Numbered from the stretch's first letter, positions 29,585 to 59,834 are shown. The stretch: 64,000 bases of DNA from Candidatus Woesearchaeota archaeon (GCA_945861715.1 CAMAVK010000004.1:784-64783), one strand, 5' to 3'. Program-made: numbers and translations. Notes: generated by a model from the sequence alone, not told the origin.

Positions 29585-29952
29585 GGTAGGGTGGCGTAAG
29601 CCGCCTTTTGTTAGGCCCAAAGAAAAACCGTCATATATGTTTTTCCGATAGCCATTGAAAGCATTCTACTTAGCGTCGAATCGACTTGCACCAGGGGGGT
29701 TTCACCGTTTCATCGTTCCCACAAAAGACGTCGATGGGTTATCTCATGTATGTTGCCATACACTTCGCCAGGTCATTCCATTTTTGTGGACGTGTCGTGT
29801 CTGAGCCAGAGCCACGGAATTTCTCCGTCTGACATTGTATTCAGTCCCTTTTTTTAGGTGGGCGGACTTTCCTCACAGGCTAAATCATTTTACTGATCTA
29901 TGGGACTTATTGCATTCCCTAAAGCTTGCGTAAGCTTTCTGCCACTACTACC
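29585..29952 (-). ncRNA. rnpB: RNase P RNA
   Basis: The minus strand has GAGGAAAGUCCG (P4 5' side), GAAACGGUGAAAC and AACAAAAGGCGGCUUAC (P4 3' side). The termini ggtagtagtggc/gccaccctacc pair as P1. TATA-like CTTAAATA lies just upstream. Confidence 0.93.
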
Positions 29953-43717: not shown

Positions 43718-44608
43718 ATGATTATTCCTGCTAAACCAGTTCCATTTGATGGTTCAATTCTCGTTACGGGGGCTACTGGGACAGTTGGTCGTCATGTAGT
43801 AGCTGAGTTGCTTAAGAGAGGAGTTCGAGTGCGAGCGGGTGTTCGGTCCGTTTCAAAGGCGGCGTTTCTTCGTAATTTGGGCGCTGAGGTGGTTGAGTTG
43901 GATTATGCTCGGCCAACTTGTGTTCGCTCAGCGTTTAAAGGTGTAGACCGGTTGTGTATCATTACTCCTGTTGATTCGCGTATGGTTCAGTTTACTGATC
44001 AACTTATTGTTGAGGCGCAACGTGTTGGTGTTCGTCATATTGTGAAGTTGTCAAGTGTTGGTGCGTCTCGAAATTCACTTCTTACTCTTGCAAAATTGCA
44101 TGGTGAAGCAGAGGAGATTGTATCAAACTCGGGAATTCCGTTTGCAATTGTTCGACCTACAATGTTTATGCAAAATCTTGTTACGATGTTTGGTGCGTCT
44201 ATAAAGAATGATAATGCGATTCATGCGCCGGCTGGTGAGGGTAAAATTCCGTGGATTGATGCGCGTGATGTTGCTCGAATTCTGGCTGAGATGATTGTAA
44301 AGAAACATACTGATCGAATTTATACTCTTACAGGGTCGGATGCGGTAAGTATGAATATTGTGGTGTCTCTTCTTTCAAAGCAACTTAAAAGAGAGATTGA
44401 ATATGTTCCAATCTCTCAAGAAGGAGCACGTTCTGGTATGGAAGGAGCAGGTATGTCTAAGTGGCATGTTGACGCTATGCTGGAGTTGTGGAGTGCAGTT
44501 CGTGCTGGAAATTTATCGGTTGTTTCACGCGATTATAAGACGGTGATGGGTGTTAATTCTGTTTCTTTGGTTGAGTTTACGCGCGACCATGAGAGTTATT
44601 GGAAATAA
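43718..44608 (+). CDS. NmrA-like NAD(P)H-binding atypical SDR
   Basis: Motifs LVTGATGTVGR, AFKGVDRL, HIVKLSSVG, IVRPTMFMQN and WIDARDVA. Confidence 0.93.
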   Translation: MIIPAKPVPFDGSILVTGATGTVGRHVVAELLKRGVRVRAGVRSVSKAAFLRNLGAEVVELDYARPTCVRSAFKGVDRLCIITPVDSRMVQFTDQLIVEAQRVGVRHIVKLSSVGASRNSLLTLAKLHGEAEEIVSNSGIPFAIVRPTMFMQNLVTMFGASIKNDNAIHAPAGEGKIPWIDARDVARILAEMIVKKHTDRIYTLTGSDAVSMNIVVSLLSKQLKREIEYVPISQEGARSGMEGAGMSKWHVDAMLELWSAVRAGNLSVVSRDYKTVMGVNSVSLVEFTRDHESYWK

Positions 44609-44749
44609 TTTTTTTCTGATTTAGATCTTTAAAAAAAGTAGATGCTCATTTTTTTTGGTTATATATCAAAAATGTTGAGTTAAAAAAATAGAATAAAATA
44701 AAATGGCTTGAAATAAAAATAATTATCATGCCCCATATGCTACTTGGGT

Positions 44750-46429
44750 TTATCTTCGTCTTGGTTTTCCTAAAGTTCGGTTTTCAAATGGTTTTTGTTT
44801 GAATCCTGCGCGACCAGCTGGTCGTCTTGAACGTCCACCACGTGCGTCTTGTGCTGCATTCCAATCTTTGAATGAGCTTCCACCTGTTTTGCCACTGGAT
44901 TCATTGTTTGTGGAATTTGTTCTCGGTTGCGCGGTGTTGTTGGAATGTGCTTGTGGCGGTGATGTAAATCGCTCTTTGGGTCTTGAATCCGATTGATGAG
45001 GGGCCCTTTGTTCAAAACGTGATGGTGTATTTGAAGCAAATCTTTGGGGTGGTCTTGATTCAAATCTTTGGGGTGCTCGTTCGTTAAATCTGGAGGGTGG
45101 TGCAGCATTTCTTGGTTCAAATTTGTTATCTCTTACCTCTGGTTTTGAGTTGAATGAGTTACTTTGAGCGTTTTCTCTCCTAGGGGAATTGTTTTCTTGA
45201 GGTCGTTTGGAGAATTGAGGACTTTCTCGACTGTTTGCGTGTTCACGATGTCCGCGTTCTTCGTTAAATGATGGTCGGTCCCGTCCGGGTGCGTATGGAG
45301 TTGGTCTTGATGAGTATGAGCGAATTTGTACAAATTCAGTATCTTGGGCTTGTCTTCGTTTTGACTTTCTATCTTCCAATTCACTTCTTTTTGAATCGTT
45401 AGGTCTTGCGTTTTGAGTTGATGGTTGTGGTTTTACAAATTGTGCTGGTACAACGTTATCACGTGGTTGGTATACATTCTCTTGTTCTGGTTTCTTTTTT
45501 TCAACTTTAAATTTTGGTTTTGATGGGTCTTTTGCTTGTATCTCGACAGGAGCGTTTTGAACGCGTTCTGCGTTGAAATATTTACTACTTTTTTCTTTTT
45601 GTTCGTTTGCCATTTGTTTTGCTTCTCTTTTTTTGATTGATAGTTTTTGTTCGCGGGGTTGGGTTTCTGTAGGGATAGATTTTGTTTCTGTTGCTCTGTT
45701 GTGGTTTGTTGTAATTGGACTTGTGTGTGTATGTTTTTCTTGGTTCATTGCTTTTGCACTCCCCGGTGCTTCGTTTTTAATGATGATCATGCAGTGGTCT
45801 TTTTCGTACGGATCTAAGTTTCGAAAATCTATTACCGTTAGTTTTTCTTCAATTTGTTTTCTGACTTCTTCAAATATTTGTTTGGATGGTTTTTTAGCGT
45901 CAATTGATCTGGCTTTTACTGCGAGTAAGCCGTAACCACCTTTTTTTAAGAGTGCACAGTTTTTGAGAAATATTTCTGCTTGGTTACGTTGGGCAACGTC
46001 TTGAATAATTATGTCTGGTTCACAGATTCTATTTTGATATTCTTCTGGGTGATTTGCGTCACAAAGAAGTGGGACAATGTTTTTTCTGTCGTGTGAGAGG
46101 AATATTAAGTCTCGAACAACGCGTGGAGCTGGGTCTACACCAAAAATAATTCCTTCGGAGCCAATCATGTCTGAGATGAATGACGCAGTGTATCCATGTG
46201 ATACTCCAAGATACAGTACAATATCACCTTTACGAAGACCAATGTTTGTGACTCCTTTTGCGATACATGCAGCGACTTTTGACCTTGTTGGGTCCCATTC
46301 GCGGAAGTCTATTGAACCCTCTTTGAAATGTTTTTCGTCAAAAGGATATTTTCCAGGAACTAGATTTTTGGTAAATAGTCGTCTTGAATCTGAGAATAGT
46401 TCAAATATTTTATGAGGTAAGATTGCCAT
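44750..46429 (-). CDS. flpA: Fibrillarin-like rRNA 2'-O-methyltransferase with ~340-aa disordered C-terminal extension
   Basis: Motifs FREWDPTRSK, VLYLG.SHGYT, DVAQRNQAEIF, VKARSID and LDPYEKDH within aa 1-218. The rest is low-complexity R/S/P/E/Q/N. Confidence 0.93.
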   Translation of the reverse strand: MAILPHKIFELFSDSRRLFTKNLVPGKYPFDEKHFKEGSIDFREWDPTRSKVAACIAKGVTNIGLRKGDIVLYLGVSHGYTASFISDMIGSEGIIFGVDPAPRVVRDLIFLSHDRKNIVPLLCDANHPEEYQNRICEPDIIIQDVAQRNQAEIFLKNCALLKKGGYGLLAVKARSIDAKKPSKQIFEEVRKQIEEKLTVIDFRNLDPYEKDHCMIIIKNEAPGSAKAMNQEKHTHTSPITTNHNRATETKSIPTETQPREQKLSIKKREAKQMANEQKEKSSKYFNAERVQNAPVEIQAKDPSKPKFKVEKKKPEQENVYQPRDNVVPAQFVKPQPSTQNARPNDSKRSELEDRKSKRRQAQDTEFVQIRSYSSRPTPYAPGRDRPSFNEERGHREHANSRESPQFSKRPQENNSPRRENAQSNSFNSKPEVRDNKFEPRNAAPPSRFNERAPQRFESRPPQRFASNTPSRFEQRAPHQSDSRPKERFTSPPQAHSNNTAQPRTNSTNNESSGKTGGSSFKDWNAAQDARGGRSRRPAGRAGFKQKPFENRTLGKPRRR

Positions 46430-46513
46430 GATTAGGGGGTTCGGGTTGTTTTCTGTTTTTTTTTGATGCTTGGGTGTTGATAGTTATTGTATTTTATGGA
46501 TGGGGTTAATGCT

Positions 46514-47458
46514 TTAGTTAGCAAGTCTCTTTTCAATATCTGCGCGATATTCAACTGCTTTGAATTCTCCTTTGAAATAATCCAAGCGTGCACAGAGGGA
46601 TAATTTGTCAGCTAAGAGTCGCGCTGCTTTTCCTTTGTTATCTTTTGAGGCGTTGGCAACAATTGGATGGTTTATTATGATTCCATATTTTGGTGAACGT
46701 GCTCCTGTTTTTATGTGACGGAATAATGCTTTTTCGGCGCCAAAGAGTTGAATTGTTGAAGCGGGTAGCATGGCTAAATGTTTTAATGATCTTGCAAACA
46801 TCAATAATTTTGCGGCTATATTTGGTCCAGCTAATTCGGTGAAATTTGGTGCGTATTTTACCATTACCTGTTGGATGTAGTTTTCAGTTTCTTTTCGTAG
46901 TTCGAAAAGATCCATTACCTGTTTTGAGAGGAGTCTAATCGGTGCTCGGTCAACTTCACTTAATTCATGGCCCAATAGATTTGGCAAATTTAATTCCTTT
47001 TCTATCTCTTGGTTTGTCTTGGTGTAAATAAGTCTTGCATAGAAGAAGTGATCTTGGGTTTTATCTTCTAGTTCGGGGTATGATAATGCGTGCCATTCTC
47101 GTAATCGTTTAGCTAAGATGTTTACTGCTTTGTCAATTTCGTCCATTAGACCTACTGCTTGGATAATGAGGAAATCTTCGTTAACAGTTGCTTTGATTGC
47201 CGTTGTTGTGGTTTGCTCATTTGCTACTTGATAGAGTGAGATGTATTTTCTTTCTTTTAGAGAGATTAGGATTTTTGAGATTATTTCAGCTGGTGCTGCC
47301 GGAGTTTTAGGGTGTTTTTTTTGCATAACGGCTGCGCATTGTGTTGTAGTTTGGGTTGAAGTTATGAGAACTTCTTCTGTTATAACTCCCGATTCTTCAA
47401 CGAGAAAGGAGCCGATGATGTGGTTGAAAATGTACATATAGTTGTTATTCTGCCACAA
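46514..47458 (-). CDS. nop5: C/D box RNP protein Nop5/Nop56
   Basis: Motifs RLREWHALSYPEL, YAPNFTELAG, PASTIQLFGAEKALFRH, SPKYGII and GKAARLLA. Confidence 0.96.
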   Translation of the reverse strand: MWQNNNYMYIFNHIIGSFLVEESGVITEEVLITSTQTTTQCAAVMQKKHPKTPAAPAEIISKILISLKERKYISLYQVANEQTTTTAIKATVNEDFLIIQAVGLMDEIDKAVNILAKRLREWHALSYPELEDKTQDHFFYARLIYTKTNQEIEKELNLPNLLGHELSEVDRAPIRLLSKQVMDLFELRKETENYIQQVMVKYAPNFTELAGPNIAAKLLMFARSLKHLAMLPASTIQLFGAEKALFRHIKTGARSPKYGIIINHPIVANASKDNKGKAARLLADKLSLCARLDYFKGEFKAVEYRADIEKRLAN

Positions 47459-53272: not shown

Positions 53273-53290
53273 TATTAAGACGTGATACCT

Positions 53291-54151
53291 ATGATTGAGC
53301 GCGATTTCATTGTGCAGAAAACAAAGGAATACTATATTAAACAATACATTGAGCGTAAACTCAAGGGTGTTGGTATTTCCCAAATTAAGCTGAAAAAAAT
53401 TCCTCTTGGGGAAAAAATTATCTTGTACACGAGTAGACCTAGTTTACTAGTAGGTTCGCGTGGAGCAAATATTAAAGATTTAACTAAAGTACTCAAAAAA
53501 GAGTTTAAATTAGAAAATCCGCAACTTGAAATTAATGAAGTTAAGGACGTCTTTTTAGATGCTAAAATTGTCGCTGAACGTATCGCAAGTTCGCTTGAAC
53601 GCTTTGGATCTGCTCGGTTTAAGAGTATTGGTCATAAGATTATGGAGAACGTGCTTAATAGTGGGGCTCTTGGTGTAGAAGTAAAGATGTCCGGAAAAAT
53701 TCCGGGTGCTCGTGCTAAAAGCTGGCGATTTTATCAAGGATATTTAAAGAAATGTGGTGATATTGCTGTTGTTGGAGTTCGAAAAGCAAAAACTACAGCG
53801 GTATTAAAGACTGGTGTTATTGGTGTACAAGTTTCAATTATGCCTCCTGATTTAGTCCTTCCGGATTATGTAGGAGTGTTGGATCCAAGTACTCAAGCTC
53901 CGATTCATGAAGTTCATGTAGAAGATTTACCTGAGTCTGTTGATGATATGCCTAAAAAAGTAGTTCGTAAAGCAGCAAATCCGAAAACAGGATCTGAGAA
54001 AGTCGGGTCTGAAAAGGCGCCTGCTAAGAAGTCTGTAGCTAAGAAAACTGCTGTGCCTAAAACAGGAACGGATAAGGTAGAATCAGAAAAGATGTCAGCG
54101 AAAGCTGAACATGCTCCGCCTGTTGTTGTTAAGGAAGCATCACAAGAATAA
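53291..54151 (+). CDS. rps3: 30S ribosomal protein S3
   Basis: KH domain, SGKIPGARAK, GYLKKCG, GVIGVQVSIM, and a long K/A/E tail. Confidence 0.98.
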   Translation: MIERDFIVQKTKEYYIKQYIERKLKGVGISQIKLKKIPLGEKIILYTSRPSLLVGSRGANIKDLTKVLKKEFKLENPQLEINEVKDVFLDAKIVAERIASSLERFGSARFKSIGHKIMENVLNSGALGVEVKMSGKIPGARAKSWRFYQGYLKKCGDIAVVGVRKAKTTAVLKTGVIGVQVSIMPPDLVLPDYVGVLDPSTQAPIHEVHVEDLPESVDDMPKKVVRKAANPKTGSEKVGSEKAPAKKSVAKKTAVPKTGTDKVESEKMSAKAEHAPPVVVKEASQE

Positions 54152-58648: not shown

Positions 58649-59194
58649 ATGAAAGAAGATATCATTCGAGAAATTCCTCTTATTAAGGGTGTTACTGCTG
58701 CATTTGTAAAGAATGTTTTAACGGTTAAAGGTCCAAAGGGAGAAGTTTCACGTGAGTTTGTTCATCCGCGTGTTCAAATTATGGTTGATGCGGAGAAGAT
58801 TGTTGTCTCTTCCTTAAAAGGGACAAAAAGAGAGAAGACTCAAGTTGGATCTTTTGAATCACATATCGTTAATATCCTTCAAGGGGTACAGGAACCACAT
58901 TTGTATAAAATGAAAATTTGCTCAGGTCATTTCCCAATGACAGTTACTACAGCTGGTCAAGAATTAATTGTTAAAAATTTTCTTGGTGAGGCTGTTCCTC
59001 GCAAAGTGACTTTTGCTAAAGGTGTTGATGTTAAAGTAACGGGAGCTGATATCGTTATTATTAGTTGCGATCGGGAATTAGCTGGTCAAACGGCCGGTAA
59101 ATTTGAACAACTGTGCCGTATCACAAATCGTGATCGACGTATTTTCCAAGATGGAATTTATATCACGCTTAAGGCGCACAAAAATACTGCTTAA
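58649..59194 (+). CDS. rpl6: 50S ribosomal protein L6
   Basis: Motifs VKGPKG, HFPM, NFLGE, GQTAG and DRRIFQDGIYI. Confidence 0.98.
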   Translation: MKEDIIREIPLIKGVTAAFVKNVLTVKGPKGEVSREFVHPRVQIMVDAEKIVVSSLKGTKREKTQVGSFESHIVNILQGVQEPHLYKMKICSGHFPMTVTTAGQELIVKNFLGEAVPRKVTFAKGVDVKVTGADIVIISCDRELAGQTAGKFEQLCRITNRDRRIFQDGIYITLKAHKNTA

Positions 59195-59204
59195 TGGTGT
59201 TATC

Positions 59205-59834
59205 ATGACAATAAAACAATTACTTTCACAACGAAATAAGGCGAAGAAACGAAAGCCTCCATTTGTTGATCGAGCATCGAATTATACTCGACGTATTAAG
59301 AAGCGGTGGAGATTACCTCGAGGTTTACACAGTGGAACAAGACAATGTCACAAAGGGAAACCTATTATGCCAAGTCCCGGTTTTGGATCACCTAGGGCAG
59401 TATATGGTTTAACTCGAAGTGGTGTGAAACCAATTTTGATTCGAACTGAGAAGGAACTTCTTGCAGTGGATGTTAAGACGGAAGCAGCAGTTTTAATGTC
59501 TGGTCTTGGTGGACGTAGTCGTGTTCGATTACTCACTCTTGCAACGGAGAAAAAAATTCCGGTACTATATGTTAAGGATGTTAGTGCTAAGATTACAGAG
59601 CTTAAAAATGCTGTTGCTTATCGCTCAAAGTCATCCAAAGATTTACGAAAGAAGAAGCAAGATCGTGAAAGTGAGCAAAAGCTTAAGAGTGAGAAGAGTA
59701 AGGAAGAGAAACAAGCTAAGGCAGCCGCTAGTTCGGATGCTGCTAAAAAGAAAGCTGCAGGTGCTGCTAAAACAGGCGCTGTTAAAGTTGAGACTGAAAA
59801 AGTTCAACCTGTTACAGGAGAAGAAAAGCAGTAG
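59205..59834 (+). CDS. rpl32e: 50S ribosomal protein L32e
   Basis: Motifs RWRLPRGLHS and PSPGFGSP...GLTRSG. Long charged tail. Confidence 0.95.
   Translation: MTIKQLLSQRNKAKKRKPPFVDRASNYTRRIKKRWRLPRGLHSGTRQCHKGKPIMPSPGFGSPRAVYGLTRSGVKPILIRTEKELLAVDVKTEAAVLMSGLGGRSRVRLLTLATEKKIPVLYVKDVSAKITELKNAVAYRSKSSKDLRKKKQDRESEQKLKSEKSKEEKQAKAAASSDAAKKKAAGAAKTGAVKVETEKVQPVTGEEKQ

Follow-up and report, generated by a model that had tools for sequence, protein, structure and literature searches.

A Woesearchaeota-type archaeal fibrillarin that continues into a long, basic, predicted disordered C-terminal tail

We analyzed a fibrillarin gene in a stretch of 64,000 nucleotides (referred to here as the window) from Candidatus Woesearchaeota archaeon (GCA_945861715.1, CAMAVK010000004.1:784-64783), a lake-water Woesearchaeota-type DPANN archaeon (GTDB Nanoarchaeota). 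A preliminary description of the window had proposed that the methyltransferase core of this fibrillarin is fused in frame to a disordered tail of about 340 amino acids (aa), and this is the arrangement that we found. A single open reading frame (ORF) of 559 aa occupies positions 44750-46429 on the minus strand, the Pfam match to fibrillarin ends at aa 218, and a tail of 339 aa (aa 221-559) follows in frame with the core, with no other frame open across the region. The parts of the gene are listed below, together with the confidence of the AlphaFold 2 (AF2) model as predicted local distance difference test (pLDDT) and the ratio of nonsynonymous to synonymous divergence (omega, dN/dS) relative to an orthologue, P0002; the omega values are approximate, as dS is near saturation.

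44750-46429, minus strand: entire fibrillarin gene of 559 codons, closed by a TAA stop codon at 44750-44752, present in the ORF list and in Logan contigs, with a syntenic 573-aa orthologue.
45770-46429, minus strand: methyltransferase core, aa 1-220 (Pfam Fibrillarin, aa 13-218, at 45776-46393; NCBIfam match; PDB matches 1G8A and 2NNW_B).
45503-45769, minus strand: proximal Lys-rich tail, aa 221-309 (K about 15%, R 4%; pLDDT 42-62; omega 0.49 over aa 221-300, the least constrained part).
44753-45502, minus strand: distal Arg-rich tail, aa 310-559 (R about 15%, K 6%, F 5.6%; pLDDT 39-53; omega 0.16-0.33).
45329-45379, minus strand: conserved block LEDRKSKRRQAQDTEFV, aa 351-367 (none of its 17 residues differs in P0002; short AF2 helix at aa 352-361).
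44999-45097, minus strand: four imperfect 8-residue P-x-R-F repeats, aa 445-477 (read from the sequence; partly kept in P0002).
44837-44881, minus strand: conserved block GSSFKDWNAAQDARG, aa 517-531, with the SFKDW motif at aa 519-523 (15 of 15 residues identical in P0002).
44753-44806, minus strand: aromatic-basic C terminus GFKQKPFENRTLGKPRRR, aa 542-559 (conserved in P0002).

The core is that of an ordinary archaeal fibrillarin. The Pfam model PF01269 matches aa 13-218 over model positions 17-224 of 227 with 227.9 bits (cutoff, 27; E value, 1e-67), and the NCBIfam equivalog model for archaeal fibrillarin, NF003276, reaches 230.4 bits against a cutoff of 113. Residues 14-218 pair end to end and without notable gaps with residues 20-225 of the 227 residues of 1G8A (E value, 5e-60), showing that solved fibrillarins stop approximately where the tail begins. 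The canonical archaeal proteins (P. horikoshii 1G8A, P. furiosus 2NNW/3NMU, M. jannaschii 1FBN, and S. solfataricus 3ID5) share this core and have Nop5 as their operon partner, but they end 2 residues past the point at which the 559-aa protein runs on for 339. Eukaryotic fibrillarin (Nop1/FBL) has the same enzyme core at 35-40% identity (PDB matches 2IPX and 7SE6). In the AF2 model the core exceeds a pLDDT of 90 and its strands alternate with helices, as in a Rossmann-type methyltransferase fold, and the last core β-strand passes straight into the tail. Residues K51, D144, K172, and H212 are invariant in an alignment of 22 homologues. The S-adenosylmethionine-binding motif I, LYLGVSHGYTASF (aa 72-79; 46193-46216, minus strand), reads SHGYTASF in this lineage versus ASGTTASH (LYLGxASGTTxSH) in solved fibrillarins, a lineage-wide variant, given that most Woesearchaeales relatives have SHG[YF]T, with SHGYT in place of SGTT. 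Taking the family models, the conserved K/D/K/H columns, the adjacent Nop5 gene, and the presence of L7Ae in the genome (contig C7, 14126-14398) together, the enzyme looks functional.

Since the gene comes from a metagenome-assembled genome (MAG), we considered a lost stop codon, a frameshift, or a chimeric contig as the source of the fusion, the more so as the two full-length Logan contigs available, from two runs and identical over 44600-46600, possibly derive from samples behind the assembly itself. However, fragments that come from a third sample and from another study contain no indels and differ only by substitutions (A442V, T377N, one synonymous, and one intergenic), and one of the Logan fragments (45694-46159) crosses the core/tail junction. 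The preliminary description had called for a check of the frame with reads; the Logan contigs of four runs show no stop codon after about aa 220 and no indel, the core/tail junction included. The orthologue P0002, of 573 aa, is encoded in a locus (L028) syntenic with that described here (Nop5-fibrillarin/NmrA) and was recovered both from the genome of a sister species and from an independent Logan assembly. Moreover, the junction ...MIIIKNE[AP]P... is found in 7/7 members of the clade of tailed proteins described below, two of them recovered independently from genomes of the same genus. An artefact of assembly or annotation has become extremely improbable and is effectively already refuted.

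To gain an idea about the constraint acting on the tail, we compared the gene with that of P0002. The cores are 92% identical, with an omega of 0.034, while the tails are 66% identical over 333 aligned residues, with a dN of 0.27, a dS of 0.88, and an approximate omega of 0.30 that falls to its lowest value of 0.16 at aa 381-460. All seven nucleotide indels between the two genes are multiples of three, for which the chance expectation is about (1/3)^7 = 5e-4, and four tail blocks are perfectly conserved, namely, LEDRKSKRRQAQDTEFV, SRFNERAPQRFES, GSSFKDWNAAQDARG, and GFKQKPFENR. The tail omega, the in-frame indels, and the conserved blocks make a neutral or untranslated tail very unlikely, and this comparison of sequences confirmed that the tail is real and kept in frame by selection.

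By prediction, the tail is intrinsically disordered: the AF2 model places only three short helices in it, and no fold, at a pLDDT of 39-62 compared with >90 in the core, which bears out the disorder expected in the preliminary description. No Pfam domain was found within the tail. Its most frequent residues are R (12.1%), P (10.6%), S (10.6%), K (8.8%), E (8.6%), N (8.3%), A (8.0%), and Q (7.7%), while Gly amounts to 3.2%, the acidic residues D and E to 11.5%, and aliphatic residues plus Cys/Trp to 5.9%; Phe is the main hydrophobic residue (4.7% versus 0.9% L and 1.5% I). The tail has a net charge of +32, a pI of 10.75, a fraction of charged residues (FCR) of 0.32, and a net charge per residue of +0.09, and its charges are mixed more evenly than in random sequence, with a kappa of 0.107 versus a shuffle mean of 0.16 ± 0.02. 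Judged by these values, it is a long, expanded, weakly positive polyampholyte, whose distal part is the longest low-hydrophobicity segment of the entire 1.30-Mb genome. The earlier characterization of the tail as Arg-rich applies to its distal two thirds, whereas the proximal third is Lys-rich. The imperfect repeats noted before could be located at aa 445-477, with the units PSRFNERA/PQRFESRP/PQRFASNT/PSRFEQRA; on the DNA level, Tandem Repeats Finder reports a period of 24 nucleotides and 2.2 copies at 45024-45091, with 82-84% matches. The motif that had been taken for the end of the protein, RGGRSRRPAGRAGF, is present at aa 530-543, but the true C-terminal end is ...GKPRRR. Independent C-terminal tails elsewhere likewise finish in an aromatic residue and a K/R cluster.

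The tail had also been likened to the glycine- and arginine-rich (GAR) region of eukaryotic fibrillarin, and at this point the comparison does not hold. Both are long, disordered, net-positive regions containing Arg and Phe outside the fold. In contrast to GAR, however, the tail is C terminal rather than N terminal, has only 3% Gly versus ~50%, is 11.5% acidic and rich in P/S/N/Q, and carries, in place of an RGG array, a single RGG at aa 530-532; fungal GAR domains retrieved in the same search contain 51-53% G and 18-19% R. Arginine methylation or nucleolar targeting of such regions is not known from archaea. The tail also resembles the KKE/D domains of eukaryotic Nop56, Nop58, and Cbf5 (PMC11528048), in that a charged disordered terminal extension is carried by a protein of the box C/D particle. 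KKE/D domains, however, are strong, blocky polyampholytes of K and E/D on scaffold proteins, whereas the charges of the tail, with an FCR of 0.32 and a kappa of 0.107, do not form blocks in which K alternates with E/D; Arg predominates in its distal part, and its carrier is the enzyme. The tailed protein is a variant form of an enzyme that is well known and belongs to a pattern that recurs in DPANN archaea and has not been described before; its tail is not a GAR domain.

We traced the distribution of such tails among Woesearchaeota fibrillarins, a survey that had been suggested at the outset and that revealed a seven-member clade with C-terminal tails, besides further N- and C-terminal extensions among the nearest clusters. 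Within the genus, 3/3 sampled species carry C-terminal tails, which extend 120, 226, and 341 aa beyond the core. Across the family, 2 of the 22 other sampled genera have short tails (63 and 95 aa), and the others end in ...KDHCMIIIKK. In a maximum likelihood tree of the core, the seven tail-bearing proteins, with tails of 117-355 aa, form one clade (SH-aLRT, 98), whose sister comprises core-only proteins and two N-extended proteins. The tree implies at least eight changes of extension state, a number that does not represent a rate, since the tree sample is enriched for long proteins. The tails of the clade have in common the junction, the composition, and an aromatic-basic C terminus; no significant sequence similarity was detected among them, apart from the distal aromatic motif discussed below. 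The survey thus showed that the tail is confined to a clade comprising the genus and its close surroundings, that it grew there from about 117 to 355 aa, and that it evolves fast. Given that this clade is nested among core-only relatives and that the tail lies at the opposite terminus and differs in composition from GAR, it was acquired independently of the eukaryotic domain, in agreement with the convergence proposed earlier.

A search with the tail alone among 5.8 billion proteins retrieved only the query protein and P0002, and no donor. Comparisons by Smith-Waterman alignment against shuffled sequences, in which we considered homology to other extensions, were nonsignificant for P0007 and P0008 (N-terminal extensions of the sister clade) and for other tails (z < 2.3); the one exception, P0001 versus P0003 (z = 4.1), is not reproduced by P0002, and the string QFVKP common to the extensions is probably due to chance. 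Inspection of the junction DNA of 10 relatives revealed no clear path for an origin through loss of a stop codon in a poly(A) run. P0002 having the sole homologous tail, the fast turnover within the clade, the internal 24-nucleotide repeats suggestive of growth by slippage, and the viability of tail-less relatives would all be expected if the tail were a near-neutral appendage that is tolerated without having a function, its source being read-through or the expansion of low-complexity DNA. This explanation is nevertheless highly unlikely, as it conflicts with the omega of 0.30 (down to 0.16 in aa 381-460), the exclusively in-frame indels, the perfectly conserved blocks of 13-17 residues, the nonrandom mixing of charges, and the retention of the tail in 7/7 clade members, among them the three species sampled from the genus.

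The tail is not a singular case: basic extensions of fibrillarin recur in the order. To assess their distribution, we used HMMER with the core, unfiltered, against 1.84 billion cluster representatives and inspected the 150 nearest clusters. An N-terminal extension of 41-228 aa, basic and low in hydrophobicity, is present in about 21 of these and a C-terminal tail of this kind in about 5; the same search also yields eukaryotic GAR proteins and some mis-called frames. Among the best 150 of the 363 species-level fibrillarins of the order, 5 have basic N-terminal extensions (~45-80 aa) and none has a C-terminal tail. Judging from these sequences, basic disordered fibrillarin extensions are recurrent in Woesearchaeota-type archaea and commoner at the N terminus. 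The other extended proteins of this type (P0003-P0024 and P0039-P0138) combine the same core with basic, low-hydrophobicity extensions of 40-265 aa, some with the distal motif; most of these extensions are N terminal, whereas the 559-aa protein and P0002 carry the longest basic ones retrieved, at the C terminus. In three archaeal-type fibrillarins, P0036 (from a Thermoplasmatota MAG), P0100, and P0169, the C-terminal tail is genuinely rich in Gly (23-31%) and Arg (22-30%).

These observations bear on a published generalization. As the preliminary description rightly stated, archaeal fibrillarins are described as core-only: in reviews and recent primary papers, GAR and lysine-rich disordered domains are stated to be absent from archaeal fibrillarin and other small nucleolar ribonucleoprotein (snoRNP) proteins, and their origin has been tied to the nucleus and nucleolus (PMC7608942, PMC7194090, and PMC11528048). 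The tails of P0036, P0100, and P0169 contradict the blanket claim that archaeal fibrillarins lack a GAR-like region. In our literature search, we found no paper describing archaeal fibrillarin extensions, and none of the extensions of P0003-P0024 and P0039-P0138 is named in the literature searched. The gene described here and its relatives thus qualify the published absence, in that archaea without a nucleolus have repeatedly gained basic disordered regions on fibrillarin that are kept by selection. They offer a natural experiment on the role of disordered regions in RNA-guided modification without a nucleolus, with RNA capture, chaperoning, condensation, and docking as candidate roles, and the sister lineages supply core-only, N-extended, and C-extended proteins for comparison.

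What the tail might do can be approached from its composition. Fibrillarin is the methyltransferase of the box C/D guide RNA particle, and a well-mixed, weakly positive polyampholyte favors the reading that this is a working archaeal fibrillarin whose disordered basic tail acts as a flexible, non-specific RNA-binding arm, which we put forward with about even confidence. Evenly spread Lys and Arg charges would raise the affinity of the particle for nascent or folding rRNA and its dwell time there, by electrostatic capture or fly-casting; RNA chaperoning is a possible additional role, and the distal aromatic peptide SFKDW may supply a specific contact. Experiments in yeast have shown that the charged disordered domains of snoRNPs enrich the particles in the vicinity of nascent rRNA and assist its modification (PMC11528048), and that the transient, non-specific RNA binding of Nop1 needs its GAR domain independently of phase separation (PMC12862394). 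By analogy, we adopt for the tail the role proposed for KKE/D domains, namely, to hold the particle close to rRNA during its synthesis. The retention of a tail in 7/7 clade members despite the turnover of its sequence counts in favor of an RNA-binding arm, and so do the RGG tails on helicases and the Lys-rich tails on ribosomal proteins encoded in the same genome (see below).

Several points weigh against it. Most relatives in the family are core-only, which means that the basic function does not require the tail. With 11.5% acidic residues and a weakly positive charge per residue, the tail would bind RNA more weakly than GAR or poly-Lys. The omega values on which the case for selection partly rests are approximate, as stated above. 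No RNA-seq run holding the gene sequence was found, and strict and relaxed C/D/C'/D' scans of the genome, which are crude, gave 0 matches to a canonical double-guide C/D small RNA (sRNA).

A different role would follow if the tail drove phase separation, alone or with RNA, and so served as the scaffold of a nucleolus-like compartment for ribosome assembly. The tail is long, disordered, multivalent, and charged at +32, with Phe as its main hydrophobic residue; eukaryotic fibrillarin is reported to condense via its disordered GAR domain, and other RNA-processing proteins of the genome, equipped with RGG tails, could cocondense. However, the composition is unlike that of GAR (3% G and no RGG array), the aromatic content is modest, and the charges are so well mixed, with kappa below that of the shuffles, that self-driven condensation is not favored; in addition, most close relatives have no tail at all. 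An Arg-Phe "sticker" pattern was also considered and dropped: RF and [RK][FY] adjacency is marginal in the tail (P = 0.03, due to the four PxRF repeats), and it is not enriched across 22 pooled extensions (P = 0.6 to 0.7). We regard a condensate scaffold as quite improbable.

Besides non-specific binding, the distal part of the tail raises the question of a specific contact. The 559-aa fibrillarin carries SFKDW 37 residues from its C terminus, and the aligned position in other members of the C-tail clade reads GFSEY, SFQRF, SFQHY, or SIPRY; apart from this motif region, no distal element can be aligned across the clade. N-extended fibrillarins often start with MSFKDY, MSFKEY, MSFKEF, MTSFEDY, or MSFESY, and the N termini MSFKDY, MSFKEY, and MTSFEDY occur in at least three other GTDB families. 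The strict motif [ST]F[KE][DE][YFW] is present in 8/56 fibrillarin extensions versus 0.11 expected from shuffles (maximum of 2 in 2,000), and a loose version is present in 15/56 versus 1.1 expected, although several carriers are related, so that these counts overstate independence. Only four strict motifs occur in the proteome of 380,227 residues, of which the SFKDW of fibrillarin is the sole one in a disordered context. In the N-extended protein P0017, AF2 predicts that the motif forms part of a short helix at residues 3-11, with a pLDDT of 72 versus 44-54 for the remaining extension.

The position of the motif at or near the distal end, regardless of which terminus bears the extension, is consistent with a tethered docking peptide: the tail would be mainly a flexible leash, and its distal motif would dock on a partner protein or ribonucleoprotein, which is compatible with RNA binding. 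The enrichment over shuffles, the rarity of the strict motif in the proteome, the complete conservation of the block GSSFKDWNAAQDARG in P0002, and the helix predicted with higher confidence in P0017 all speak for this possibility. On the other hand, the pattern was defined post hoc, after inspection of the sequences; P0004, from the same clade, does not have the motif; AF2 confidence is low for the GSSFKDWNAAQDARG block in the 559-aa protein; and the idea that the motif replaces a lost N-terminal domain of Nop5 does not fit (see below). All in all, we consider a docking role for the tail unlikely, and it seems similarly doubtful that a repeated disordered leash with the same distal aromatic-acidic peptide at either end marks a docking contact that has been conserved in the archaeal methylation machinery. 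If this were the case, docking could occur, e.g., with pre-ribosomes or with an assembly factor, and disordered regions of snoRNPs, thought to be eukaryotic and tied to the nucleolus, would have evolved convergently in archaea without a nucleolus.

The non-specific RNA-binding arm that we favor would operate within a box C/D particle, and the following genes flank that of fibrillarin.

46514-47437, minus strand: Nop5 (aNOP56), 307 aa from ATG, 84 nucleotides upstream of fibrillarin (Pfam Nop domain at aa 104-313 of the 314-aa frame from TTG).
43718-44608, plus strand: convergent gene for an NmrA-like NAD(P)-binding protein, the downstream boundary of the locus (Pfam NmrA; the same neighbor is found in the orthologous locus L028).

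Nop5 is indeed short, as noted in the preliminary description, and it carries neither a KKE tail nor any other C-terminal tail. Its residues 58-305 match residues 107-371 of S. solfataricus Nop5, so that its N-terminal domain, which binds fibrillarin, has only about half of the usual length (~57 versus ~106 aa). We considered that the fibrillarin extension might compensate for loss of this domain and rejected the idea, as both features show no relation in the order. There, the N-terminal domains of Nop5 range from ~0 to ~110 aa (loci including L019, L020, L025, and L045-L052), and proteins in which this domain is absent are 249-269 aa long. Nop5 devoid of the domain co-occurs with core-only fibrillarin (L019 and L020), and N-extended fibrillarins (G282, G287, G178, and G268) occur together with Nop5 of 304-371 aa, in some cases with a long N-terminal region.

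As for guide RNAs, a scan for C and D boxes with a terminal stem yielded six matches versus none in the reversed genome. Of these six, one is intergenic, at 243976-244045 on the minus strand of contig C1, and combines the boxes GTGATGA (C) and CTGA (D) with a terminal stem of 5 bp. The only match in the window that reaches the Rfam gathering level is the archaeal RNase P RNA (RF00373; 124 bits) at 29587-29950 on the minus strand.

Disordered basic tails are also found on other proteins encoded in this genome. Two DEAD-box RNA helicases (contig C3, 126531-128375, minus strand; contig C2, 187818-189305, plus strand) have genuine RGG/GAR-type C-terminal tails of ~120-137 aa (RGGSRGGSRGG...), indicating that the organism does use eukaryote-style RGG tracts, though not on fibrillarin. 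Like the fibrillarin tail, these are disordered basic tails on RNA-handling enzymes, but they consist of true RGG tracts; the basic/RGG tails of DEAD-box helicases are commonly assumed to provide auxiliary RNA binding. In the window, two proteins that by the appearance of their sequence are S3-like (53282-54151, plus strand) and L32e-like (59103-59834, plus strand) ribosomal proteins end in disordered, Lys-rich tails of 66-83 aa, and an L11-like and a TFE-like protein elsewhere in the genome have C-terminal tails of the same type.

Finally, other fibrillarins depart from the core-only architecture in different ways. P0025 (729 aa, on a 1.44-Mb contig) is a natural fusion of Nop5 and fibrillarin, whose linker consists of a repeated GGDRRRGDRRE/RGG-like tract followed by an acidic EKVE stretch. 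In P0026-P0028 and P0095, fibrillarin is joined to a C-terminal NUDIX hydrolase domain (PF00293), with the Nudix-box-like sequence GGKVEKDETSADAAIRECREESG in P0095, and one of these fibrillarin-NUDIX clusters has 39 member sequences. P0016 (353 aa) has a hydrophobic N-terminal extension of 129 aa (42% I/L/V/M/W/C) with the appearance of several transmembrane helices, which may be an oddity for an RNA methyltransferase or else a gene-call fusion.

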